From Azolla caroliniana (Eukaryota > Plantae > Polypodiophyta), in contig JBHGNT010000002.1 in the NCBI GenBank assembly GCA_043228905.1, positions 17,980,001-18,044,000 of the forward strand: 64,000 nt of DNA, given 5' to 3'. Positions within the stretch are counted from its first letter, which is position 1; each line of letters starts with the position of its first letter. The position numbers and the translations under genes are program-made. The notes under the pieces are model-generated. The model worked only from the letters and a program-made list of their open reading frames with translations. It was not told the DNA's origin and made no database searches. Below are positions 8,362 to 62,309 of the stretch, piece after piece.

Positions 8362-9210
8362 TTACTGTTTCCTTGCCGAGGTGTGCTTGTTATTGTGCAT
8401 CCACACTTTGAAGACATTTCTCTTCACACCGACATCATTGCAAAACTCAAGCAAGGAAGCTTCATCATGTTTCGATATCCTCCACCCCAGAGTTTCAGCA
8501 AAGTTCGACATCCTCTCCTTCTGATCGGCAGTGAACTTGGTGCGAAACCTCTTCTTTTTTGAGAACAAAGGCCGAGGGTGTTCTGGTGGCTCGTCGTCGT
8601 CGTCGTCGTCATCGTCATCATCTTCATACTGTTGTTCATCGAATTGAGCAAGTGGCATGATCATCTGAGCATGTGGTGAAATATCAGCTGAAGAAATCTG
8701 TTGATGATGACCCTTGGCTTCACGAACACGAGGGCTCAATGGGCGAAGTGATGGTGTAAGAGTATAAGTACCTAGGTTTCCTGGATCTTTCCCAATTCCT
8801 CCACAAGTGCAAGTATATTCTCCATCTGGACCCACAAACTCTCGACGATGAAAATTGCGATGGCATGAGCACACAGCACAAATTAAGGCTTCAAGTGTGC
8901 CTTCTTTCCCACTTGGTAAAAACTCTCCACATCCATCGATGGCATGGCCACCTATGTTTGCCACATGATTCTTTTGGCATTCTCGATAACGAACATGATG
9001 TTTCCTTTGTTGTTGTTGCGTGGTTTTTTGTTTATTAGAAGAGTCTTCATTCAAATGGCCACCATTATGATTAGCATGATGAGACCTAGCAAATCTAAAC
9101 ATAACTTCGGGGCTTCCTTCTCTCGGAGAAGATGCAGAAGAACCTCCTCCTCCACCATTCACAGACCCATGTTGTCCATTGGAAAACTTCGGATTACCAT
9201 CTTGATCCAT
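8362..9210 (-). CDS. Zinc finger-homeodomain (ZF-HD/ZHD) transcription factor, 282 aa, intronless
   Basis: ZF-HD dimerisation domain VRYRECQKNH..GGHAIDGCGEF..LICAVCSCHRNFHRRE and C-terminal homeodomain KKRFRTKFT..QKERM..FAETLGWRI..FC..VGV.RNVFKVWMHNNK. Confidence 0.97.
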   Translation of the reverse strand: MDQDGNPKFSNGQHGSVNGGGGGSSASSPREGSPEVMFRFARSHHANHNGGHLNEDSSNKQKTTQQQQRKHHVRYRECQKNHVANIGGHAIDGCGEFLPSGKEGTLEALICAVCSCHRNFHRREFVGPDGEYTCTCGGIGKDPGNLGTYTLTPSLRPLSPRVREAKGHHQQISSADISPHAQMIMPLAQFDEQQYEDDDDDDDDDDEPPEHPRPLFSKKKRFRTKFTADQKERMSNFAETLGWRISKHDEASLLEFCNDVGVKRNVFKVWMHNNKHTSARKQ

Positions 9211-9368
9211 GGAAAAGAAGTGTTCATAGAGAGTACTTCCTCCACACTATCAACATTCTCCTTCTACTTCCTTCTTCTTCCTCTCCTACAAACTTCTTTC
9301 CTATGTTTTTCGTGTGTTTCAACACTTTTATACCACTGTTTCACCACTTTAATACCTCTGTTCCACCA

Positions 9369-13074: not shown

Positions 13075-14358
13075 TGTGAAATGCACATAAGAGGTCAAAA
13101 CCAACCTACTTAGCTTCTTACTTCTTGATCAATTTATAGTTGATACAAAGGTACCCATTTGGGTTGCCTTAGCTAAAAAGGGTGTGCTAAAAGGGTGGCT
13201 TAAAGGAACACATGCACACCACATTTCCCCCTTGAGAGAAACAAGAGACTAATGAGCAGGAACAAGAGTAGTGGCTTGTCCATCTGTTGGAGATAGAGCT
13301 CCCAAGTGGCACTATCCATGTTGGCAGGTTTCGAATGGACATCAATGGATAATTCTGGTGGGAGGTGAGGGTTACGACCATAGAGTGCTTGAAAAAGGTT
13401 GATCCGTGTCGATGCTTGTACAAATGTATTGTAGGCATGGGTGGCGAAAGACAAGATTTGATCCCAGGTTTTGTGGCATGGATCGATGTAAGCGACAATC
13501 TCCTTCTTGAGGGTCTTGTTGAGGCGTCCGATGAGGCCATTTGTCTGAGGATGGTATGGGGACTTAAACATCTGTTGGACACCTAGTTGAGCTGCAACAA
13601 CGTTGAGGACATCCTTGTGGAACTGGAGGCCCTGATAAGATAATAGTTGGATGGGGCTAGTGACAGAAAACGAGCTAGCAATTGGTGGATAGAGATCAAT
13701 CACTCATGTGGACTAAGGGCCACTTGGACTTGGCTGAGGTGGGGGACAAGAGGGCTATCATGTCGGGGGGTCGGGGAAAGATCAATTGGCGGAGACGGAT
13801 CAATCGCTCCTATTGACTGCGGGTCACCTAGACTTGGCTGAGGTGGGGGATAGGAGGGCTATCGTGTCAGAGGGGAATCGAGGAAAGATCAATTGGCAGA
13901 GAAAGATCAATCGCTCCTTTGGATTGAGGGCCACCTGGACTTGGCTGAGGTGGGGGACAAGAGGGCTATAGGCGGATAGAGATCAATCAAACTTGTGAAC
14001 TGAGGGCCACCTGGACTTGGCTAAGGTGGGGGACAGGTGGGCTATCGTGTAGGAGGGGGATCAGAGAAACTCGTGGGATAAGAAGTTAGTGGGCAACTTA
14101 AGGTGAGGGGGAGAGGTGGATGCTTGGACATGGGGAACTAGTGCCCATCATCTCCACCAATATGTGAAATGCACATAAGAAATCAAAACCAACCTACTTA
14201 GCTTCTCACTTCTTGCTCAATTTATAGTTGATACAAAGGTACCCATTTGGGTTGGCTTAGCTAAAAAGGGTGTGCTAAAAGGGTGGGTCGCCTTAGGTAC
14301 ATTCATCCTAAAAAGGGTGTGTTAAAAGGGTGGCACAAAGGAATGCATGCAAACCACA
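13075..14358 (-). mobile_element. Short internally deleted Gypsy (TRIM-like) element: LTRs 13075-13223 and 14163-14358, 4-bp TSD ATAT, integrase remnant
   Basis: Direct repeats TGTGAAATGCACATAAG...CCACA, minus-strand PBS TGGTGGAGATG (tRNA-Ala-like), PPT AAGGGGGAAA, and ORF 13200-13703 with SPYHPQTNG..RLNKTLK..W...YN...LYGRNP. Confidence 0.8.
13680..14070. repeat. About 75-105 bp tandem repeat (about 4 units) inside the short Gypsy element
   Basis: CCACCTGGACTTGGCTGAGGTGGGGGACA.GAGGGCTAT core repeated four times. Confidence 0.8.
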
Positions 14359-16190: not shown

Positions 16191-17020
16191 TGTCACGATA
16201 CAATGACATAAAATACAGTCGTTCTAGAGACGCCACCGTCACCATAGTCACAATCATTGCTTCTAGAGACGTTTCCTCATCATTATCATTTTTGCTGCCT
16301 TGTCTTCGACATCATAATTTTCACCTTTTTGGTGGGGATTGCATCAACTACCTGCTTGTGCTACCGTTTGTGTTGTGTTTTGGGTCAACCTCAACTATTT
16401 ACCCTCTCATGATAGAAGAAGCCGAGTTGAACGCTTTGTGTGCACTCCTTTGCTCGTTGGTGTTCCAGTTCCCGGTGAGGACCGTACATGGTCGCTCACG
16501 CTTGTTGGTGTTCCAATCTCCGGTGAGGATCACACATGATCGCTCATGCCTATTGGGGTTCAAGTTCCTGATGAGGACTGCAGAAGGTCGGTCACACCTG
16601 TTGGTGTTCCTAGTGAGGACCGTACATGGTCGCTCACGTTCATTGGTATTCTAGTCTCCGCTCACCCCTACAACACGCTTTCGAAAAGGCAATCGTAAGG
16701 GGAGGATAATGTCACGATACAATGACATAAATACATAGTTGGTGAGGATTGAACTTGCAACCTCGCGTCAACAAGATGCCATGCTCAAGCATTTTGATAT
16801 AAGCATGTATTTATATATCATGTACTTGATCTAGAAATACTCTCTAATCACATACCTCTAGAAAGTTCTAGAACGAGAAGAAGGTTCTAGAGGGTTCTTC
16901 AAAATACTCTAATGCATGTACTTCAACTCATGGTATAAATGCTTGTAACCTCCTTGGCCCCTTTCAATGGATTCAACACCAATCATTGACACATCAATTT
17001 AGTATTCTCATTTCATGCCA
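16191..17020 (+). mobile_element. Gypsy-type LTR relic: partial LTR start at 16191, PPT, LTR 16710 to about 17020
   Basis: TGTCACGATACAATGACATAAA occurs at both 16191 and 16710. PPT AAGGGGAGGATAA precedes 16710. The U3 is TCTAGA-rich. Confidence 0.6.
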
Positions 17021-21058: not shown

Positions 21059-21845
21059 ACCGAGTTCTGGAAACCCAAAAACGATAAAACTAGCAGTATC
21101 CCCTTCTGTATAAAAAAGGGCTTACTTTTTTCTAGCTTTACCACTATAATCTAATAGTTGCGCTATATATGCCCCTGATGTCAAAGAAATACTATTCTCT
21201 TGCAAAGACTTTCTTCAGATTCTCACAACTTCGAGGCAGCCTAGATATTAGCTGTATAGTCGAGCACAAAATGTTATTCTATATACTGCATATTGGCATG
21301 CATATTATTTTCTTTTCCAGACATGTATGGCCCTTCTAGATCACTCTGTCCTGTTGACATTGATCACACTGCATATGTCTTTGTCAATGATATACTTCAT
21401 TTTTCCTGGCAATAAATCTAAAAATGTGCAATTTACCCTTAGTTGAAACAACCGAGTTCTGGAAACCCAAAAACGATAAAACTAGCAGTATCCCCTTCTG
21501 TATAAAAAAGGGCTTACTTTTTTCTAGCTTTACCACTATAATCTAATAGTTGCGCTATATATGCCCCTGATGTCAAAGAAATACTATTCTCTTGCAAAGA
21601 CTTTCTTCAGATTCTCACAACTTCGAGGCAGCCTAGATATTAGCTGTATAGTCGAGCACAAAATGTTATTCTATATACTGCATATTGGCATGCATATTAT
21701 TTTCTTTTCCAGACATGTATGGCCCTTCTAGATCACTCTGTCCTGTTGACATTGATCACACTGCATATGTCTTTGTCAATGATATACTTCATTTTTCCTG
21801 GCAATAAATCTAAAAATGTGCAATTTACCCTTAGTTGAAACAACC
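21059..21845. repeat. Apparently perfect 392-bp tandem duplication in an intron
   Basis: ACCGAGTTCTGGAAACCC... starts at 21059 and 21451, with ACC microhomology at the junctions. Confidence 0.92.
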
Positions 21846-31364: not shown

Positions 31365-32093
31365 TGTCGTAGTGTGAATCACACACTACGTGAAATGTGT
31401 AAAATACTATATCCGTTTTAAAGTACGTATAATAAATAAAATAAAATATTAAAAATATTTATTACAAGCATAGGGCAAGATTTGAACCCTATACCTCCAC
31501 GTAGACAAACCCTAATCTTACCACTGTACTAACTTATCCTAAATGTTCTACATATAGATTTAATACATATAAGACCTTTATTTACGCCTACCTTTATTAA
31601 AAGGTAAGTCATGCATTTTTAGAATGCGTGAATACTTTATTTATAAGAAAAACGTATACCAATAAAAAAATGACTCGTGCACATCTAGCGAGCATGAGCA
31701 CTATATTTAGGAAATAAAAGCATAGTGTAAAAAGGCAACTCATACACATTTAGTGTGCATGAACACTTTAGAAAAAGCATGAAGCTATGCTTAGCCTCTT
31801 CCATCCTTATATAAGGAGGAGAGAAAGATGTATGGGGGGGTTGTTGATTATTTTACAAGGGTTGATTAATATAATATATTCATGGGATTCACGAATTTGC
31901 TAACTATTTTTCTCTCTTAATCTGAGTACTCACGAATACACTATACTCATGGGATTCACGAGTTTTTCATATATTTCTTTCTTACAATATATTTCATATT
32001 CTTAATTGCCTTAGAATTTTCTTTTCTCCTAGTCCAAAACCTCAGTGGTTCCTACCCGATTCACGCAACGATCCAGAGCCGAAAGGCACAACA
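31365..32093 (+). mobile_element. Gypsy solo LTR (about 729 bp) related to the 34378 LTR, 4-bp TSD ACAT/ACGT
   Basis: TGTCGT start with terminal hairpin CGTAGTGTG/CACACTACG, TATA followed by a purine tract, ends CAACA. Confidence 0.7.
31467..31538 (-). ncRNA. tRNA-like Pol III cassette in solo LTR (not a functional tRNA)
   Basis: A box TAGTACAGTGG (31531-31521) and B box GGTTCAAATC, T8-G53 spacing 44 nt. Confidence 0.55.
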
Positions 32094-33442: not shown

Positions 33443-34431
33443 TATTGAGCGGCAAGCTCAACTGGAGCCAGATCGGCTGAATAAGCTTGAGCCGGCAAGC
33501 GAGACGGATCGATAAGCTGTGAGCAACCGAGCCGGCAAGCAACCAAGCCGGTGAGCTGGGGAGCCGGTTAGCCGGATCCAACTAGTAATCGGAAGCCTAA
33601 TATTAGTGTAGACTACTAGGAAATTATAATCTCGTAGGAAGTGTTGGATGCTCGTGTGAGCATTGAAGTACGTGGTACTTCTGCCAGTCCCACGAGGACT
33701 TGTATAAATAATGCTACAAAGCATAGTTGTATAGATAGAGTGTTTTATATATTTTTGAATATAGCTTTGAGCTTCTGCTCTCTCTGTCTCTCCGGTGTAC
33801 TCTGTGTATTCCCTAATTTCTCTGTTTTCTAACGCTTCCGCAAGTAATTGTTCACATGGTATCAGAGCGCGAGGGTTGAGAACCTCTGCAACCAACAAAC
33901 ACTTGAAAGCAAACCCTAACAGGTCGTAAGAATAGCAGACAGAGAAGTCATGGATAGAGGGATGGCTAGCTTGCTCCCTGTGGAGAAACTCGACAGATCC
34001 AACTCTGCATCTTGGTCGTACAAGATGCACCAGTACCTGCTTGGGCATGGCTACTGGAGTTTCGTTGAAGGAGCCAACGAAACAGCACCTGATGCGGCAC
34101 ATAAGGATTTCCCAGTGTGGGAACAATCGGCAAGTAGAGTAATGTACTGCTTCGCATCCAGTGTCGGAGACCAGCTGCTGAGCCACATCCGAGACACCAA
34201 GACGCCGAAGGAGGCTTGGGGAAACCTGAAGAAGGTCTTCGCCGTGAGCACCACGGCCCAGAAGCTGCAACTCCGACAGGAGTTGAGCAATGTTTGACAA
34301 AAGGACATGTCGGTGGCGGATTACATGGCCCGGATCAAAGAGATCTATGACTCGCTTGCCTCTATCAACGTTACCGTTGTCGTGAAGAATGTGCTTCACG
34401 ATATAAAAATGAGCTTAAATGTTGTATTTAA

Positions 34432-34503
34432 TAATATTTGAGAGACTTGAACGCACATCCTTATATACAATATACAATGTACATACCACTAGGCTAGGCT
34501 ATT
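34432..34503 (-). ncRNA. tRNA-like cassette 1 in the Gypsy LTR (copy in the 3' LTR at 39878-39949)
   Basis: A box TAGCCTAGTGG and B box GTTCAAGTC, spacing 44 nt. Confidence 0.55.
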
Positions 34504-34567
34504 TATTTGTAAAAGTGTGTAATAAATGTGCTTCATGATATAAGAATGAAGCTATATATTGTATTAA

Positions 34568-34639
34568 GTAAAATTGAGGGACTTGAACCCTCAACCTTGT
34601 ATACCAAGCACCAAGCATACACCACTAAGCTAGGTTAGT
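34568..34639 (-). ncRNA. tRNA-like cassette 2 in the Gypsy LTR (copy in the 3' LTR at 40014-40085)
   Basis: A box TAGCTTAGTGG, perfect T-arm TGAGGG-TTCAAGT-CCCTCA, followed by TTTT. Confidence 0.7.
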
Positions 34640-34880
34640 TATTTTAGAATGCATTTTCATCATTATACTTATCGCATATCTATTTTCATACATAGCCATC
34701 ATTCATCACATGCAATGCATGTGCGCCAAATGGCGATCATGCATTACATGTAACTCATGCATTGCATGCATGCCATGCTCCCATACATTACCATATGCAT
34801 GGCAACACTTATATAAAGAGGGGAAAGGGTAAACAAGGGAGGGAATCAAGAGAGAGTGAGAAAATAATACAATCAATTAA

Positions 34881-34954
34881 AGAAGACTAGCTCATTGGGT
34901 GGAGAACCTCTCGTTTCGAAGTTGAGGTCGTGGGTTCAAATCAAGGGTCGATAG
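34881..34954 (+). ncRNA. tRNA-like cassette 3 in the Gypsy LTR downstream of the TATA box (copy at 40327-40400)
   Basis: A box TAGCTCATTGG, variable loop AGGTC, B box GGTTCAAATC, spacing 46 nt. Confidence 0.65.
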
Positions 34955-35312
34955 ATAATGTGTTCAGTTTGCGGTCAAGGATTGTAAAGTTGGTAAAATA
35001 TTATATTTTTAATATACATCATGTTTATATCATATACTCTTGTTCCTTGAATCATACTTTGTCTCAATCTTCTTTCTAGAATCATACTTTGTCTCGATCT
35101 TCTTTCTTGAATCATACATTGTCTCTATCTTTTATCTATGCTTGTCTCTCTCTCTCTCACACACACACACATTACTCGTAACTCTTCTTCTTACTATCCT
35201 TAACCATTCTATCATCACCATACAAGCCTTATTAAAAGTTAAGTTCCTTCAACTCCCCTTAACCTTAGTCCCCGCGACTTCGCCGCACGAACCACAACTA
35301 CCCCGACACATT

Positions 35313-35330
35313 TGGTGAACCCGACGTGAA
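35313..35330 (+). promoter_or_regulatory. Primer binding site complementary to the tRNA-Trp 3' end
   Basis: TGGTGAACCCGACGTGAA is the reverse complement of TTCACGTCGGGTTCACCA, the plant cytosolic tRNA-Trp 3' end (recalled from memory). Confidence 0.8.
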
Positions 35331-35694
35331 GGCGGCGACGAGGAGAAATGGAGGAGCAAATGAGGCTTATGTGTACGATGATGGAACGAGTGATGCGGGA
35401 ACAAGGGATGATGACAAGCATCGACAAAGCCGTCGACAATATTCTCGCACGAGTAGGAATCTTCGAAGGTATAAATTTAACAAGATTTCTGAAGATTTAT
35501 AATGAAGAAATGCTTAAACGCGGTGTCGACGAAGCTACAAAAATTAATAGCTTTAGTCGAGTCGCTGCGATTGGGCTACAAGAGAGGATCCAAGAGCTCC
35601 AAAGGGAGAATCAGACATAGAAACAACGACAGATATAAAAAAGGTACTAGAAACAAGAATATTAAATAGTAAGGTAGAATTTACTTTAAGAGAA

Positions 35695-36378
35695 GTGTTG
35701 GGTATAGCAAAGAAAGAATTTCATGAAGTTATCATAGATATTATTAGAAGGAAGAGACAGGTGACGGAGGAAATTACGGGAGGGTGTGCAGCAACACTCC
35801 AAGATTTGTATGGTGGCACCATCAATGCTGCAAGTGTAAAAAACCAGAATGATGTTGGCGTCCATGAAGGGGATAGGAGTCACTATACAAGGGACCATTG
35901 GGCTCGAGCAACAACGGAGGCACCTGCAAAAATTGGGGAGCAGCAAATTCCATGTATTGCTTTGATCGATCATGGATCAGAGATTAACATGATGTCATCG
36001 GAATTTTACGCTCGAGGACGATGGCCGATTGACAAGAATCATGGGTGGAAAATAAGAGCTGCCACAGAAACTACGGAGGATCTATTCGGAGCATGTCCTA
36101 GTATGAAGGTAACAATTGGTGATGTCTCGGTGAATCAAAATTTCTTTGTGCAGGATCGATCAACCTACCCCGTCATCCTTGGTCAGCCCTACATCACCGC
36201 AGTGAGGATGGAAACAAAGGTTATTGATGATGGTTCGGCTTTCGCGAGAATCAAGAGTCAAGATGGAAGAAAGACTGTCCAATTCTTAACCGTGAGGCCC
36301 AACCATGAAAGAAACAAAGAATGCTTGAGGGAACATCCAATTCAAGAGATGGATGAAGAGTTTTCCCAGGATTTTTAG
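35695..36378 (+). CDS. Gypsy gag C-terminus and aspartic protease
   Basis: ALIDHGSEINMM and VILGQPY motifs. Confidence 0.85.
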   Translation: MLGIAKKEFHEVIIDIIRRKRQVTEEITGGCAATLQDLYGGTINAASVKNQNDVGVHEGDRSHYTRDHWARATTEAPAKIGEQQIPCIALIDHGSEINMMSSEFYARGRWPIDKNHGWKIRAATETTEDLFGACPSMKVTIGDVSVNQNFFVQDRSTYPVILGQPYITAVRMETKVIDDGSAFARIKSQDGRKTVQFLTVRPNHERNKECLREHPIQEMDEEFSQDF

Positions 36379-36581
36379 ATAGGGCTTTTACAGGTAGGGG
36401 CTGTGATAGCCCGAGCATAAAAGAAAACCCCATAAATAATAATGTAAATAAAGATATTCCTTGTACAATCTCATCTAATGGTGCTACTTTTATACTAAAA
36501 GTAAATAATAATAAAATACAAAATGCTTTCGAGTACTTTAAGTGTTCTGGATTAATAGATGATGATGAAGAAATTCAGGAT

Positions 36582-39500
36582 ATGTTTGAAGAATTAAGTT
36601 TTGAAGATACAATAACTCATTTGGAAGCAATGGAAGAAGACAACGAAATCCAAGTTCCTGTCCATTCAATCAAGATGTATGAGGTCATTGAAGAAGTTGC
36701 TCGAAAGGATCATGAAGCACATGTTCTAACAAAGTACAAGACAGTGGAGAAGAAGGTTCGTCCTATTGCTGCTCCACTTCCAGGGGATAGTGAAAAGGCA
36801 ATCAAAGAAGCAGCCACAGAGCCAATGATCAGAGACCCACGAAAGGTAGGACATGTGTTTACTCCGGAAACAATACAAGGGATGAAAATAGGAGGGGATG
36901 ACTTCCTATTACCCGCTGAAGAAAAGCAGTTCAGGGAGATGTTAAAAAGGCATGGAAAGGCGTTCGCATTCCAACCGGAGGAAATAGGGTGTGTGGATCC
37001 AGAAATTGTGGAGCCCATGGTTATATTCACTATCCCTCATATTCCATGGAACTTTAAGCCAATACCCATGCCTAGGGCTAGAATCCCTCAACTATTAGAA
37101 CTTTTGAAAGAAAAGATAAGGATGGGTATCTTGGAACCATCGAATACTCCTTACTCGAGTCGATGGTTCACTGTGTTAAAGAAAGATGGGCGACTCCGAT
37201 TTATCCAAGATATGCAACCCGTGAATAAGGTAACAATCCGAAACTCGGGAGTAGGGCCAATTGTGGATGAGTTTGCTGAGATGTTTGCAGGAAGAGCTAT
37301 ATATTCAATGGGAGACCTTTATTCCAGGTATGATCAATTTCAACTTGCTATCAAAAATCGAGATATAACTTCTATCAAGACACCTATAGGGTTAGTACGG
37401 ATGTGCACCTTGCCGCAAGGAGCGACCAACTCAGTGGCGCATATGATGAATGGAATGAACAAGGTACTTCGTGATTTTATTCCTCATATTACAATGCCTT
37501 TTCTAGATGATGTTCCAATTAAGGGATGCAAGGAGGAAGAGAAGAACGAGGAATTGGACGAAAGTGGTTGCCGTCAATTCGTTGCTGATCATATCAAGGA
37601 TTGTGAGAAGGTGCTATCAAGGATGGAAGAAGTGCATTTGACCTTATCAGGGGCGAAGTCAATATTTGGGGCAAAAGAGATATTAATAGTTGGTCATATG
37701 TGTGGCCCGTATGGGAGAAAGCCATCCCCAACCAAGGTCAATGCAATTCAAAATATGCAAGAGGAATGTACATCCATCTCAGAAGTACGAAGGTTTCTGG
37801 GGGTATGTGTTTTTTACTGTAAATGGATTCCGCATTATGCCCATTTATCTGAACCTTTATATAGACTCCTAAGAAAAGGAGAGACATTTGAATGGAGTGA
37901 AGAGCATTCAGAGGCAATGAAGAAATTGAAGTACTACTTGGCACAAGCTCCACCATTAAAGCAACCAGACTACACCCGGCCCATATATCTCACAGTAGAC
38001 TCTAGTCCCATTGGAATTGGATGGGTGATAAGCCAACAAGATAGGGAAGAAAGGTATCCAGTCCGATTCGGGGCAAAGGTTCTTAGTGGTCGACAAAGAA
38101 AATATGCACAGGTGAAAAGAGAGCTATGGGGGATAGTAACAGCTGTAAAGACAGACAGAGATTACTTAATTGGTGCTGAAGTAATAATAGAAACAGATTG
38201 TTTGCCTATTCTGGGTATCATAGCTAATTGTGATATTCCAGATCAAGCCATGTTAAGATGGTGTATCTATATTAGATCAATCAACCCTGAAGTTCGACAT
38301 ATCTCTGGGAATAGAAATGCAGTAGCAGATATGTTATCAAGAGCAAGGTATGAGGAAGAGGAGATTCCAGACTCGGACGATGAGGACAAAGAACAAACAG
38401 TCCTTACCACAAGCATTACTCGGGAAGGAGGAATGCAGTTTCTAGAAGAGGAGTATGAAGAAGAATTCAAGGAGATAGGAAAATACCTACAAACCCCTGA
38501 CAAGTACAAAGGTCTATCTGGAAAAGAGTTCGCACAGTTTCGCAAGAAAGCCCATAAGTTCTTCCTGCATGAAGGATATCTATGGCTACATCCGAAAACC
38601 AAGACTGGAAACCCGCAAAGAGTAATAGGTTCTGAAGGGCAAAGAAAGGAGATAATCAAAGAGCTGCATGACAAAGAATGGGCTGGTCATCGAGGAGTGT
38701 GGGCCACTTTCAGTAAGATTAAAGAACGATTTTGGTGGCCTCGATACTATGAGCAAATAAAAAAGTATGTGGAAACTTGTCCCACTTGTCAATATTATTC
38801 AAATGTAAAATTTTGTGATGAATTACACCCAACATACTCACCGGGGGTGCATTACAAGTGGATGATAGATTTGGTAACAATGCCACTTGGAGTAGGACAA
38901 AAGAGATACTTGGTTCTTGCTAGAGAAGATTTAACAAATCAAGTGGAAGGTCGTTCATTGAGAACAAAAGGGACATTAGGAGTATGTCAATTCATCTTGG
39001 AGGACATTGTTTGTAGATATGGATGTATCGGGAAGATAGTGGCAGATAGGGGAGAACTCAATTCTGCGGAAGCTCAAGATTTTTTCGACAAAATAGGAAT
39101 TCGGCTTTCTTTGACAACGGCGTACAATCCAGAAGCTAATGGAAAGGTAGAAAGGGGACATGGGCCAATAGTCAAAGCTTTGGCAAAGGCATGTAGAGGA
39201 CGGGTTAGTGATTGGCCAAAAACCTTACCCTATGCACTATGGGCTGATAGGACAACTCACAGCACTGTTACTGGATATATGCCTGCAGAATTAATCACAG
39301 GACAGAAGCCAATAATGCCAATTGAAGAAAAGATAACTACATGGGCTGTGTTGCCTTGGGAATCGGAAATGAGTAGGGAAGATTTACTTGCGGTTCGAAT
39401 ACGACAACTTCAATCAAGGATAGAAGACATAGAAAAAGCAGCTACTAGATTGAAAGAGGCAAGAATCAAGAATAAGGACAGATTTGACAAGATGAAAAGA

Positions 39501-39785
39501 ATACGACCAAGAAAGGTGCAAGAGGGAGATTGGGTATTAGTATATGATAATAGCCTAGATAATCAATATAGTACTATTCGGAAGTTTGCAAAAAGATGGT
39601 TTGGACCTTATGAAGTTAGGAAAATAACAGATAAAGCCACATATTTCCTCAATGAATTAGATGGGACAGAAATTCGTATCCCAATTGCAGGAAAAAGGAT
39701 TAAAATATTTAAAAGGAGGGAGTCATTAGAGCCTGAATTTTATGAAGAAGTAGAAGAACTAAAAATCGGAAGAAGTGTTGGATGA
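36582..39785 (+). CDS. Gypsy Pol (RT-RNase H-integrase), 1067 aa; frame open back to the slippery site at 36369
   Basis: LPQGATNS, FLDD, TVDSS, ETDC, H.G...C..C zinc finger, YNPEANGKVER, GPY. No chromodomain. Confidence 0.95.
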   Translation: MFEELSFEDTITHLEAMEEDNEIQVPVHSIKMYEVIEEVARKDHEAHVLTKYKTVEKKVRPIAAPLPGDSEKAIKEAATEPMIRDPRKVGHVFTPETIQGMKIGGDDFLLPAEEKQFREMLKRHGKAFAFQPEEIGCVDPEIVEPMVIFTIPHIPWNFKPIPMPRARIPQLLELLKEKIRMGILEPSNTPYSSRWFTVLKKDGRLRFIQDMQPVNKVTIRNSGVGPIVDEFAEMFAGRAIYSMGDLYSRYDQFQLAIKNRDITSIKTPIGLVRMCTLPQGATNSVAHMMNGMNKVLRDFIPHITMPFLDDVPIKGCKEEEKNEELDESGCRQFVADHIKDCEKVLSRMEEVHLTLSGAKSIFGAKEILIVGHMCGPYGRKPSPTKVNAIQNMQEECTSISEVRRFLGVCVFYCKWIPHYAHLSEPLYRLLRKGETFEWSEEHSEAMKKLKYYLAQAPPLKQPDYTRPIYLTVDSSPIGIGWVISQQDREERYPVRFGAKVLSGRQRKYAQVKRELWGIVTAVKTDRDYLIGAEVIIETDCLPILGIIANCDIPDQAMLRWCIYIRSINPEVRHISGNRNAVADMLSRARYEEEEIPDSDDEDKEQTVLTTSITREGGMQFLEEEYEEEFKEIGKYLQTPDKYKGLSGKEFAQFRKKAHKFFLHEGYLWLHPKTKTGNPQRVIGSEGQRKEIIKELHDKEWAGHRGVWATFSKIKERFWWPRYYEQIKKYVETCPTCQYYSNVKFCDELHPTYSPGVHYKWMIDLVTMPLGVGQKRYLVLAREDLTNQVEGRSLRTKGTLGVCQFILEDIVCRYGCIGKIVADRGELNSAEAQDFFDKIGIRLSLTTAYNPEANGKVERGHGPIVKALAKACRGRVSDWPKTLPYALWADRTTHSTVTGYMPAELITGQKPIMPIEEKITTWAVLPWESEMSREDLLAVRIRQLQSRIEDIEKAATRLKEARIKNKDRFDKMKRIRPRKVQEGDWVLVYDNSLDNQYSTIRKFAKRWFGPYEVRKITDKATYFLNELDGTEIRIPIAGKRIKIFKRRESLEPEFYEEVEELKIGRSVG

Positions 39786-42700
39786 ACTCTACACAACCAA
39801 TGTGCAAGTTCAGAGGGGGTGGGTGTCGTGAAGAATGTGCTTCACGATATAAAAATGAGCTTAAATGTTGTATTTAATAATATTTGAGAGACTTGAACGC
39901 ACATCCTTACATACAATATACAATGTACATACCACTAGGCTAGGCTATTTATTTGTAAAAGTGTGTAATAAATGTGCTTCATGATATAAGAATGAAGCTA
40001 TATATTGTATTAAGTAAAATTGAGGGACTTGAACCCTCAACCTTGTATACCAAGCACCAAGCATACACCACTAAGCTAGGTTAGTTATTTTAGAATGCAT
40101 TTTCATCATTATACTTATCGCATATCTATTTTCATACATAGCCATCATTCATCACATGCAATGCATGTGCGCCAAATGGCGATCATGCATTACATGTAAC
40201 TCATGCATTGCATGCATGCCATGCTCCCATACATTACCATATGCATGGCAACACTTATATAAAGAGGGGAAAGGGTAAACAAGGGAGGGAATCAAGAGAG
40301 AGTGAGAAAATAATACAATCAATTAAAGAAGACTAGCTCATTGGGTGGAGAACCTCTCGTTTCGAAGTTGAGGTCGTGGGTTCAAATCAAGGGTCGATAG
40401 ATAATGTGTTCAGTTTGCGGTCAAGGATTGTAAAGTTGGTAAAATATTATATTTTTAATATACATCATGTTTATATCATATACTCTTGTTCCTTGAATCA
40501 TACTTTGTCTCAATCTTCTTTCTAGAATCATACTTTGTCTCGATCTTCTTTCTTGAATCATACATTGTCTCTATCTTTTATCTATGCTTGTCTCTCTCTC
40601 TCTCTCACACACACACATTACTCGTAACTCTTCTTCTTACTATCCTTAACCATTCTATCATCACCATACAAGCCTTATTAAAAGTTAAGTTCCTTCAACT
40701 CCCCTTAACCTTAGTCCCCGCGACTTCGCCGCACGAACCACAACTACCCCGACACCGTAGAGGAAGACGAGATGGTACAGGTCTATCTTGGGGGCCTGGT
40801 GTCTAAGTTCAGAGCGTTTCGAACGGCGGTGTGTACAAGGGAGAATATGCCGTCATTTTTCGACTTACAGTCAATGCTCCTTGTAGAGGAGAACCACGCC
40901 GGTGAGTCAACTAGCGCACCCACTGACAGCTAGATGCTGTACACGGAGGCGGATCGGTCCCGTGGGCGTGGTGGACGAGGCGGGTCGGCACGCAATGGAG
41001 GCGGCCGGCAAGAGCAAGAACGAAGGCACAGAGAACGTGTCGACAACAGTTCCGGGACTTCCACAGGCAGGGGGAGTCAAGGCGGTGTTGGAGGCCGGCA
41101 AGACAAATCCGCAACGGAATGCTTGTATTGTGGCAAGAAGGGCCACAGAGAAAGCGAGTGCTAGAGAAAGCGCACCGATTCAGACAAATCTGGATCCGGC
41201 AAGGCCAGCAAGGATGGCTGGCAAAGCTCGCACTACGCTAAGGGATCGGGAGGATCCAAGAACGGTAACGGGCCAGCCTTGGTGATGAAGCATGAGGCGA
41301 ACTCGATGAAGAAGACCACTTCCAAATCGGAGGAAGTGTGGTATGTTGATTCTGGTGCGTCAAACCACATGACGAGCCACAAAGAGTGGTTCTCCTTCTT
41401 GGAGAAACCGGATCAACCAGGAGTAGTCGAAACCGGAGACGATACTCCTCACCCAATCGTGCACGTCAGAGAAGTCCCTTTGAGCCACATCGGACAGAAG
41501 GGGAAGCTGATGAACGTACTACACGTTCCGACAATCACGAAGAACCTGGTGTTGGTCGGACAGATCGTCAACCAAGGGATGCAGGTGTGGTTTACGCACC
41601 TCGGGTGCTTCATCGAGGAAGAGGGCTAGATTATTGTGCAAGGGCGCAGAGACGGGAGGATGTTTATCCTCGACTCCAACGACGTTGGCACCGCTATGTT
41701 TGCAAAAGGACAGAAGGTCGAATCAGACATCGACCTATGGCACAAGCGGATAGGCCACGTCAATTACTGAAGGATTCAAGACCTGCAAACGAAAAAAGTT
41801 GTTTTTGGTTTGCCGAAGTTCAGCGGCCAAAAGGCCCAAGTATGTGAAGCCTGCCAACTCGGGAAGCAACACCGGCTTCCATCCCCCACAGAATGGAACC
41901 GGAGCCGTAACAAGATTGACCTTATCCATTCGGATGTGTGGGGACCGGCACAAAATGTTAGTATTGGCGGGAGTCGATATTTCGTCTCCTTCATCGACGA
42001 CTATACGCGACACACATGGATCTACCTCATTGAGCGGAAGAGCGAAGTCTTCGAGTGTTTTCGGAGTCTCCAAAGCATGGTGGAACGGGAATCGGAGAGG
42101 AAGATCAAATGCCTACAGTCGGACGGCGGGAAGGAATACTTTTCCGGCCAATTCAACAGTTATCTGCAACAAACGGGAAATCTGCGAGAGTTTAGCTGTA
42201 GATACACACCACAACAGAATGGTGTTGCCGAGAGGAAGAACCGGTCGCTTATCGATGTGGCAAGGGCAATGCTGGAGGAAAAGAGCATGCCCAAATTCTA
42301 CTGGGCGGAGGCAGCCCGAATGGCTATCTACATCTAGAACCGGATCGGTGACAAGGTGTCAGCTCACGAGCTGTATTTCGGGCGGAAGTTGAATTTGAGA
42401 CACCTTAAGATCTTCGGTAGCATTGCATATGTGTATGTACCGGATGAGAAGCGGAGGAAGCTGGATGCAAAATCGGAAAAATGCATCCTATTCGGCTATG
42501 CTCAAGAGCAAACAGGTTATAAGTGTTATAACCCCCGGACAAGGCAGGTCCGAGTTAGTCGAGATGTCAAGTTTGATGAATCGGCATCGTGGTACTCCTT
42601 ACCGACTCTGACTTTTGAGTCTGACCTGTTGCCGGAGGATGAGGCTAGTGAGCCCGAAGCGGCCCAGGTAGAGGATGATGAAGCGTGGACTCAGGATGAG

Positions 42701-60296: not shown

Positions 60297-60369
60297 CAAT
60301 AGATGGTCTAATGGTCAAGAGCTAGACCCATATAACCTAAGGTCATGGGTTCGAGTCTTGCCATATCAT
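60297..60369 (+). ncRNA. tRNA-like cassette at the U3 terminus of the Tcn1-like LTR, antisense to the element
   Basis: A box TGGTCTAATGG (60304), AGGTC loop, B box GGTTCGAGTC (60348), spacing 45 nt. Confidence 0.65.
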
Positions 60370-62309
60370 GACACTATCCCCCCTTTAAAACGACGAGTGT
60401 CACGAGTCGTCTTGGATTGAGGACCCGGTTTGTGTGGATATTGACGATGGAAGTCTTCAAGAAGAGGACGAGCATTGGTTACATTCTCGATCGGTTCCCA
60501 AGTACGTTCGCTGGGGCTATAGCCTAGCCAATCGACTAGATAGTAGAGCTTGTTGCGAACAATCTTGGAATCAAGGATGGCGGGAACCTCGTACTCCGGC
60601 CCATCTTCAAGCTCGATCGGGGGTGGAGGTTGGATAAGACGTCTTGGGATGGTGCTCTGGTGGTAGGGTTCAAGGAGAGAACTATGAAACACTGGATGTA
60701 TCTGAAGTTGAGGAGGTAGATCGAGACGAAAAGCGACATCATTAATCTTTCCAATAATACGGAAAGGACCTAATCACCAATAATCCAACTTCTCACATGG
60801 CCGAGTAGTCTTGATGTGTCGTCGTAGCAGCCACACCCGATCTCCAATATTAAAACTGGATGGAAGTCGATGACGATCCGCGTAGACCTTTTGTGTTTGT
60901 TGAGCTTGCTGGAGATGAGTAGATAAATCCGCTTGTATCTTGCGTAACCGCTCCAAACAATACTCCTCGCATGGATTTGTGGACACCTCTAGGGTTTAAG
61001 GTACACTCCACCGGGGGTGACATCCCGTATAAGCATAAAATGGCGTAACTTTAGTGGATTCGTGGATAGAGCTGTTATAGGCAAATTCGGCGAAGTGGAG
61101 AATATCTGCCCAGTCATCCTAATGATAGCTGAGAAAGCACCGTAGATACTGCTCTAGCGTTTGATTTGTTCGTTCAGCTTGGCCGTCGGTTTGTGGGTGG
61201 TAGCCGGAGGAGAGGTTACAAGTGACCTTGAGCATGTTAAAAAGGTGCTTCCAGAATTTTGACACGAACTGGGGTCCACGGTCGCTGATGATACTATCGG
61301 GAAGTCCATGATGCCGACATACTTCACGCATGACAATTTTGGCAGTGTCTTCACTGGAGATCTCCTTAGTACATGGCAAGAAATGAGCCATCTTCGTATA
61401 TCGATCGACCACCGTTAGAATCGCATTGAACCCCTTAGAGATTGGAAGATCTGTGATGAAGTCTAGAGCAATGGATTGCCATGGCTTGCTTAGAATTGAT
61501 AATGGTTCTAATAAACCATATGGATGATGCCTTGGCATTTTAGCTCTGCAACATGTATCACAAGTCCGAACAAAATCCTCGACAAATTGTCGCATACAGG
61601 GCCACTAGAATGATCATTATACTAAATGTAATGTTTTAGTACTACCAAAATGCCTAGCTGTATATGTGTCATGACAGTTTTGTACTACTCGAAGGCGGCA
61701 AGAACCATTAGGAACATACAAAAGTTCTTTAAAGAAGAGTAATCCATCATGGTATTTGAATTGCCGATAGTCCGTACCTGGTGGTTGCGATTGTGAACAC
61801 GACGCTCGAGAGGGATCAATTTGTGCTAGTATAGCTTGGGTGAACGCATTTGTCTTCAAGTCTTCACGTATGGTATCGATAACGCGGGAATCCATAGGCA
61901 TGTCAAAGATTTGTGTTGCTTGTAGTCGTGCCGGTCCCAAGATGACTTGTTTTTGGTTATCGAAAGCTGGCTCGCTGGGACGGGGTGCTAGATACGAATG
62001 CCGTGATAATGCATCTGCCTTCCCTTGGTGCCTCCCTGGACGATATGTAATTTTGAAGTCGAAACGCGTGAGGAAGTGGGCCCACCGAGCTTGATGTCGA
62101 TTCAACACACGAGCATCCTGAAAGTAGGCAAGATTCTTGTGGTCACTAAATACGGTGACTGGATGAGAGGATCCCTCCAGAAAATGCCTCCATTGCATAA
62201 AAGAATCCACTATTGCCAATAGCTCCTTATCATGAATTTCGTAGTTGATTTCAGCGGCATCAAACTTGCGTGAGTGAAAAGCCATAGGATGTAGCTTCTC
62301 ATCATTCCC

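Follow-up and report, generated by a model that had tools for sequence, protein, structure and literature searches.

The 64 kb window of the Azolla caroliniana genome analysed here (contig JBHGNT010000002.1) is rich in repeats, and at positions 34378-40754 it harbours a 6,377 bp Ty3/gypsy element inserted into the remnant of a copia gag gene. The insertion is delimited by copies of the target site duplication CCGT (34374..34377 and 40755..40758) and by two 931 bp long terminal repeats (LTRs) with TG...CA termini, at 34378-35308 and 39824-40754, which differ only at positions 34464 and 35159, indicating that it is very young. Between the LTRs, all on the forward strand, lie a primer-binding site (PBS; 35313..35330), common to most relatives and, on a weak RSV_PBS match, probably of the tRNA-Trp type; a gag remnant with the protease (35349..36378); an intact pol frame of 1142 aa (36357..39785), encoding reverse transcriptase, RNase H and integrase; and a polypurine tract (39812..39823). 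As a normal PBS and polypurine tract are present, self-priming was rejected for this element. Relative to the intact 710 aa frame of L001, a relative of 96% identity that also has an open frame of 1151 aa, approximately 1.08 kb of gag is absent near 35618; the description of the element as pol-encoding in an initial annotation of the sequence consequently holds for pol itself, but this part of gag has been lost.

Named homologues of the Pol protein are found in Riccia (up to 68%) and Adiantum. The element was classified as Phygy-like by matching its target site and compact build to the published description of that clade of non-chromovirus Ty3/gypsy elements (Neumann et al. 2019, PMC6317226): the 4 bp duplication is of the NCGN type, the element is short, its interior is filled by the coding region and no chromodomain match was found in the 1142 aa pol frame. 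A second Phygy-like family is represented by a solo LTR (31365..32093, forward strand; 79% to L009), which is flanked by ACAT/ACGT. The available text of that description draws Phygy from Physcomitrella only and makes no mention of tRNA-like units in the LTR.

The single host gene identified in the window is an intact ZF-HD homeobox gene (8362-9246, minus strand), the nearest named matches of which are Adiantum and Ceratopteris proteins. Elsewhere there is an exact tandem duplication of approximately 392 bp (21059-21845; 100% identity), possibly either very recent or an assembly artefact, and two tandem arrays with periods of approximately 105 and 48 bp (13661-14062 and 16461-16660, respectively) lie within other retroelements.

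The 5' LTR of the element begins with a terminal hairpin (34378..34403; 10 bp, -12.9 kcal/mol, z -5.2). Such a hairpin was seen by eye in most of the 22 distinct LTR starts that were folded, the letters of stem and loop varying among families while the pairing is kept, and it may serve as a signal for integrase or for end processing. Further downstream, a palindromic segment at 34660..34809 contains eight CATGCA/TGCATG matches and one GCGCCAAA, presumably RY and E2F-like motifs, and is likely to represent a Pol II enhancer core. This segment is shared with L014 (1011-1169), L042 (1990-2078) and the 3' end of L074, where it lies in another element's probable LTR; the Pol proteins of the families sharing it are merely 64-69% identical. 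It is followed directly by a TATA box, TATATAAA (34810..34817), at the position originally reported, and then by a purine run.

tRNA-derived promoter units in the LTR

Both LTRs contain three pairs of sequences corresponding to the A and B boxes of tRNA genes, as the initial annotation had proposed. All three pairs match the search patterns used (TRGCYN3-4YGG for the A box and GTTCRANYC for the B box) without mismatch, and the distances between T8 and G53 are 44, 44 and 46 nt. In the 5' LTR, unit 1 (34433..34503; A box 34496-34485, B box 34452-34444) and unit 2 (34569..34639; A box 34632-34621, B box 34588-34580) are antisense, on the minus strand, whereas unit 3 (34881..34954; A box 34888-34899, B box 34934-34942) is in the sense orientation; the corresponding T8 positions are 34496(-), 34632(-) and 34888(+), with 39942(-), 40078(-) and 40334(+) in the 3' LTR. 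Units 1 and 2 are tandem duplicates of approximately 77% identity, so the duplication recognised from the sequence is borne out, with a period of 136 bp rather than the suggested 138 bp. Unit 2 does possess the perfect T-arm and T-run ascribed to it, the arm being lengthened into an 11 bp hairpin and the T4 run (34573-34570) starting 6 nt past C61. A T5 run is found at 34409-34405 for unit 1, and the earliest downstream of unit 3 is at 35006.

Such an arrangement is not expected by chance: 300 dinucleotide shuffles of the LTR contained a mean of 0.07 pairs under relaxed matching and none under strict matching, and not one of the 300 reached three. Across the 64 kb, 26 relaxed matches were found, and the only six without mismatch are those in the LTR copies of this element. 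The units thus have the A and B boxes at tRNA spacing typical of type 2 Pol III promoters, with 44-46 nt in LTR-side matches (43-47 nt being allowed), and the sequence upstream of them is 57-88% AT, within an AT-rich LTR. No SINE body, tail or target site duplication was seen by eye 3' of the B box around the units in the window.

None of this amounts to a functional tRNA gene, a candidate that was rejected. When the units were compared with the Rfam tRNA model RF00005, as had been recommended, unit 2 alone scored, at 17.4 bits (E 1.9), below the cut-off of 29, and units 1 and 3 gave nothing; ARAGORN predicted no tRNAs in the window or in the 56 of 80 related loci scanned, there were no tRNA matches at the Rfam gathering threshold in 16 loci, and the stems are paired only at the level of chance. 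In 22 units with a spacing of 44 nt, none of the tRNA stems retains pairing beyond the level of column shuffles, the numbers of Watson-Crick pairs observed and expected being 50/154 and 44.5 for the acceptor stem, 25/88 and 23.3 for the D stem, 27/110 and 27.4 for the anticodon stem, and 30/88 and 30.6 for the T stem, and the anticodon triplet takes 11 forms. The suggestion that tRNA-shaped decoy RNAs are made is accordingly disfavoured.

By contrast, primary sequence characteristic of tRNA genes is retained. Among 24 units found by box pattern alone and scored outside that pattern, tRNA identity is present at A14 in 21 and at Y33 in all 24, and through the variable loop at A44 (21/24), G45 (20/24), G46 (24/24) and T47 (20/24), which settles the tRNA origin of the units. 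In 12 disjoint pairs of units picked by flank identity, differences affect 12/138 positions of the box cores and 4/48 of the variable loop, compared with 106/267 in the spacer and 381/1200 in the flanks, although the contrast between boxes and spacer is inflated as the units were detected through their boxes. The pattern recurs between units 1 and 2, which have diverged since their duplication within the LTR at 9/22 spacer and 1/12 core positions, and in common variants among contigs from four runs, which fall at 2/30 core and 12/46 spacer positions (p 0.04). In L002, both boxes outlast a 10 nt deletion in the spacer. The promoter signature is therefore preserved and the tRNA shape lost. Across divergent families, the boxes and the distance between them are better conserved than the spacer and flanks, a result that fits the original expectation and would be consistent with DNA-level binding sites for TFIIIC or Pol III.

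Distribution and orientation among related elements

Relatives were taken as the best 80 of 165 loci from a metagenome scan. One series of assemblies supplied 69 of these 80, including all the unit-bearing loci, which limits their independence; no units were found in the loci of other collections, which are few and more distant. A two-block profile, applied to each family in a version trained on the others, found 35 matches in 62.7 kb of LTR-side sequence and four in 297.6 kb of internal sequence, compared with one match in each for reversed controls. Six of the 35 belong to the window element itself and one, in L079, is outside the LTR, while of the four internal matches, three represent one weak site common to integrases that are almost identical, and the remaining one, in L074, lies in another element's probable LTR. 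The L079 unit (position 1428, minus strand), whose T-arm is paired and which has a T4 run, is situated between CT/GA repeats and may represent either a free SINE head or a piece of another repeat.

The units are by no means confined to one copy. Counting elements with at least 350 bp of sequence past the start of the 3' LTR, the window element included, a unit is present in 15 of 32 elements and 11 of 23 U3 types, and absent from 17 and 12, respectively; as about half of U3 types manage without it, the module is optional, and the families lacking units include L003/L004 and others whose long frames are intact. At least eight changes in unit presence are required on a rapidly built Pol tree of 45 rows. 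Degenerate units were found in L002 (the sense unit), L007 and L028, and the chimeric LTRs of L042, L014 and L001 suggest that U3 modules are exchanged. L042 (1662-2322) and L041 have a second window-family LTR start inside their own LTR, and in L001 (1-511) and L014 parts of U3 differ between the two ends of the element; in each case a chimera from the assembly of repeats is possible. It is these comparisons across families that establish the units as integral to the LTR. Their recurrence in the twin LTRs of one element, the argument originally advanced, proves nothing, since both are copied from one template.

Within the window, the solo LTR described above contains one antisense unit (T8 31531(-), B box 31487-31479), and a further unit (60297..60373, forward strand; T8 60304, B box 60349-60357, spacing 45 nt) belongs to a Gypsy element with a chromodomain, being antisense within the start of U3 in its 3' LTR, which begins at 60373 on the minus strand. 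The B box of this chromovirus unit ends 16 nt from the end of the LTR and there is no T4 run within 140 nt, such that a Pol III transcript would exit the LTR, in the 3' copy running antisense into the integrase end. At the profile threshold there were no matches in the three copies of the other chromovirus LTR (43858, 49474 and 57885) or in the copia LTRs of the window. A search of viral contigs found no relatives of the Phygy-like or chromovirus Pol, so the chromovirus case consists of one LTR in the window and the probable one in L074.

An orientation class could be given to 31 of the 33 units: 20 are antisense in U3, seven are sense downstream of the TATA box and four, in L019, L023, L028 and L031, are sense in U3 and so face inward. 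T8 of the antisense units lies 114-275 nt upstream of the TATA box (for which the pattern was matched in 9 of the 12 cases tried), and the downstream sense units are 75-130 nt past it (matched in 4 of 6). The recurrent core is a single antisense unit in U3, most LTR types carrying a U3 unit only. Outward-facing cassettes on both sides of the TATA box, the layout emphasised in the initial annotation, are thus a true description of the LTR in the window, but not of these elements in general: only three LTR types (the window family, L014 and L015/L067) are bracketed in this way, and 4 of the 33 units face the promoter.

Possible roles of the units

Pol III promoters in LTRs have been described before. 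Cassandra and Ajax possess such promoter elements within their LTRs, but these are non-autonomous, 5S-derived TRIMp3 elements with a type 1 promoter, according to the available text of Kojima (2024, PMC10886601), and Ajax is consequently not the tRNA-derived analogue it had been taken for; that role falls to Helenus, another TRIMp3, the LTR sequence of which is tRNA-derived and conserved around boxes A and B, mostly with no functional tRNA. Helenus elements are non-coding, 311-1263 bp long and presumed to be transcribed by Pol III, the sole plant member in that account coming from Selaginella. The elements here, unlike Helenus, are coding and 6-7 kb long; they retain a TATA box and have as many as three units in each LTR, most of them antisense in U3. 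At 6,377 bp and with a 1142 aa pol, the one in the window is far from a non-coding TRIM, for which the limit is around 1 kb. The same source remarks that 'not a few' Repbase LTRs hold parts of tRNAs, leaving coding ones unanalysed, and argues that autonomous partners have to use Pol II and would probably not have LTR sequence of this kind in common with them. Also known are foamy viruses, autonomous Pol II-driven retroelements with A- and B-box Pol III units in the LTR, whose product is a hairpin miRNA and whose boxes and terminator have been tested (PMC3993851, in its accessible part); the units described here differ in being tRNA-derived, mostly antisense and devoid of a conserved RNA fold. 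In a partial survey of the literature, no account was found of coding plant LTRs with multiple tRNA promoters in mainly antisense orientation. Set against the known tRNA-derived LTRs of non-coding TRIMs, the presence of such units in coding plant LTRs, patchily across lineages, would appear to be new.

Genomic RNA is produced from the Pol III unit in Cassandra (PMC10886601). Here, this was rejected, and with it transcription of the whole element by Pol III, as the template between the two copies of unit 3 is interrupted by 19 runs of four or more T, four of these being T5 or longer, and most units are antisense. With genomic RNA excluded as a Pol III product, and the TATA box and palindromic core kept, the units would be expected to act locally, and the occurrence of the same signature on both strands suits a DNA site. 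TFIIIC binds the A and B boxes of tRNA genes and brings TFIIIB to the AT-rich region upstream (PMC13578239, in the part available). In yeast, barriers, insulators and roadblocks to read-through are formed by assembled Pol III complexes, and tDNAs are also able to repress neighbouring Pol II promoters (PMC4228148, likewise in part); these are host loci with tested functions, whereas the putative counterparts here, A and B boxes adjoining a Pol II promoter, are LTR-borne.

We favour the reading that the units are selected, DNA-level TFIIIC or Pol III sites that shield the Pol II promoter, in a boundary or chromatin-opening role, putting its probability at roughly 45%. On this view, TFIIIC would occupy the units and nucleate a Pol III complex next to the Pol II promoter of the element, with TFIIIB placed approximately 30 nt upstream of the start of the unit, which for antisense units would be between the unit and the enhancer core. 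This complex would keep a nucleosome-poor zone, stopping silent chromatin or read-through from the flanks, while the genomic RNA would still be made by Pol II. The benefit would be greatest for lineages inserting into other transposons, through NCGN targets or a chromodomain integrase, and both carrier lineages appear to bear features tied to insertion into other repeats. A boundary role is favoured by these features, by the strand-independent signature and by the steady distance from the TATA box; counting against it are the dispensability of the module, the 4 of 33 units facing inward and the restriction of the two-sided layout to three LTR types. More tentatively, fern Gypsy lineages, both Phygy-like and chromovirus, may have captured the promoter of a host tRNA gene as a swappable LTR module that insulates the Pol II promoter in heterochromatin, an optional component moved in and out of U3.

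The most substantial alternative, though an unlikely one, is that the units are Pol III genes whose useful product is a short (about 70-130 nt), mostly antisense RNA, serving as a source of small RNAs or a silencing decoy, for which the foamy virus miRNA units are a precedent (PMC3993851). T4 runs are scarce within the 33 units (1 observed, 6.2 expected; A4 control 2 against 3.0), a B-box hairpin is significant in 7/33 units compared with 3/33 in the control, and, in unphased data from four runs, variants at positions 52 and 62 of unit 2 occur in corresponding proportions (7/9, 11/10, 53/53 and 39/33%). Together with the conserved variable loop, the T4 shortage and this co-variation are unexplained by pure TFIIIC binding and hint at transcription. 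However, the T4 or longer runs within 40 nt downstream of 13/20 antisense units are not enriched over the 12.2 expected from composition, the significant hairpins are confined to a minority of units, and the transcribed body, which diverges by approximately 40% and lacks a common fold, gives no sign of a conserved RNA product. It is still less probable that the units are functionless relics of tRNA-derived SINE heads, their conserved boxes reflecting past selection on the SINE and detection bias. SINE insertion has been proposed by Kojima as the source of tRNA-bearing LTRs (PMC10886601), and the patchy distribution with its eight or more changes on the Pol tree, the unit of L079 outside a Phygy LTR and the ascertainment bias of the paired comparison would all agree with it. 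Yet the window units lack any visible SINE remains past the B box, the boxes have been spared both by divergence after duplication within the LTR and between positional orthologues, and they persist in L002 despite its spacer deletion. Searches by flanks alone, noisy owing to offsets and used case by case, also yielded mostly intact units or swapped modules rather than units that had decayed where they stood.

Other explanations are harder to sustain. Pol III complexes might damp or orient the LTR's own Pol II promoter, holding transcription under the threshold of host silencing, much as yeast tDNAs impose tgm silencing and block bidirectional Pol II starts (PMC4228148). The sequence evidence is identical to that for shielding, and the four inward-facing units would suit a damper no less than a barrier, but we consider this rather improbable for a family that is abundant in several runs and has a copy as young as the one in the window. 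No RNA data set was among the runs listed as containing the family, a result with no bearing on its expression. Pairing of antisense U3 units in the genomic RNA with the primer tRNA, bridging the genome ends for strand transfer, is very improbable. Such a role in strand transfer has precedents in HIV-1, with its tRNA-like sequence in U3, and in Ty3, whose PBS is bipartite; 20 of the 31 oriented units are antisense in U3, and the conserved positions are those of tRNA loops, the variable loop included. Nevertheless, the primer expected from the PBS has A62 and hence T52, while 22/24 units have G at position 52 and 22/22 a pyrimidine at position 62; positions 39-43 vary; and sense units, which cannot pair with the tRNA, bear the same signature. 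Equally remote is the idea that retroelements targeting the region upstream of Pol III starts use the units as landing pads: none of the five unit types in the window has an LTR end immediately upstream of it, the junction in L001 substitutes the unit from the A box onward with no insertion ahead of that box, and the window element itself inserted at an NCGN site in copia gag.

Over 7500 tRNAs have been reported for Azolla (PMC13578239, in its available part); the available main text and nine supplementary files of Li et al. 2018 (PMC6786969) give no nuclear tRNA count. LTR-borne tRNA-like units could add to inflated tRNA counts in ferns, though those described here fall below the thresholds of ARAGORN and Rfam. 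The wider issue is how plant LTR retrotransposons remain transcribable inside other, silenced transposons. If the units bind TFIIIC, they would offer a simple mechanism in cis, accessible to point mutation of a 9 bp box and with the unit-less sister LTRs as natural controls. Were the shielding role to hold, the boundary function of tDNAs, seen in yeasts and animals, would extend to plants and to mobile elements, as a protein-free, cis-acting anti-silencing device, and thousands of LTRs would scatter TFIIIC boundary sites throughout the genome.
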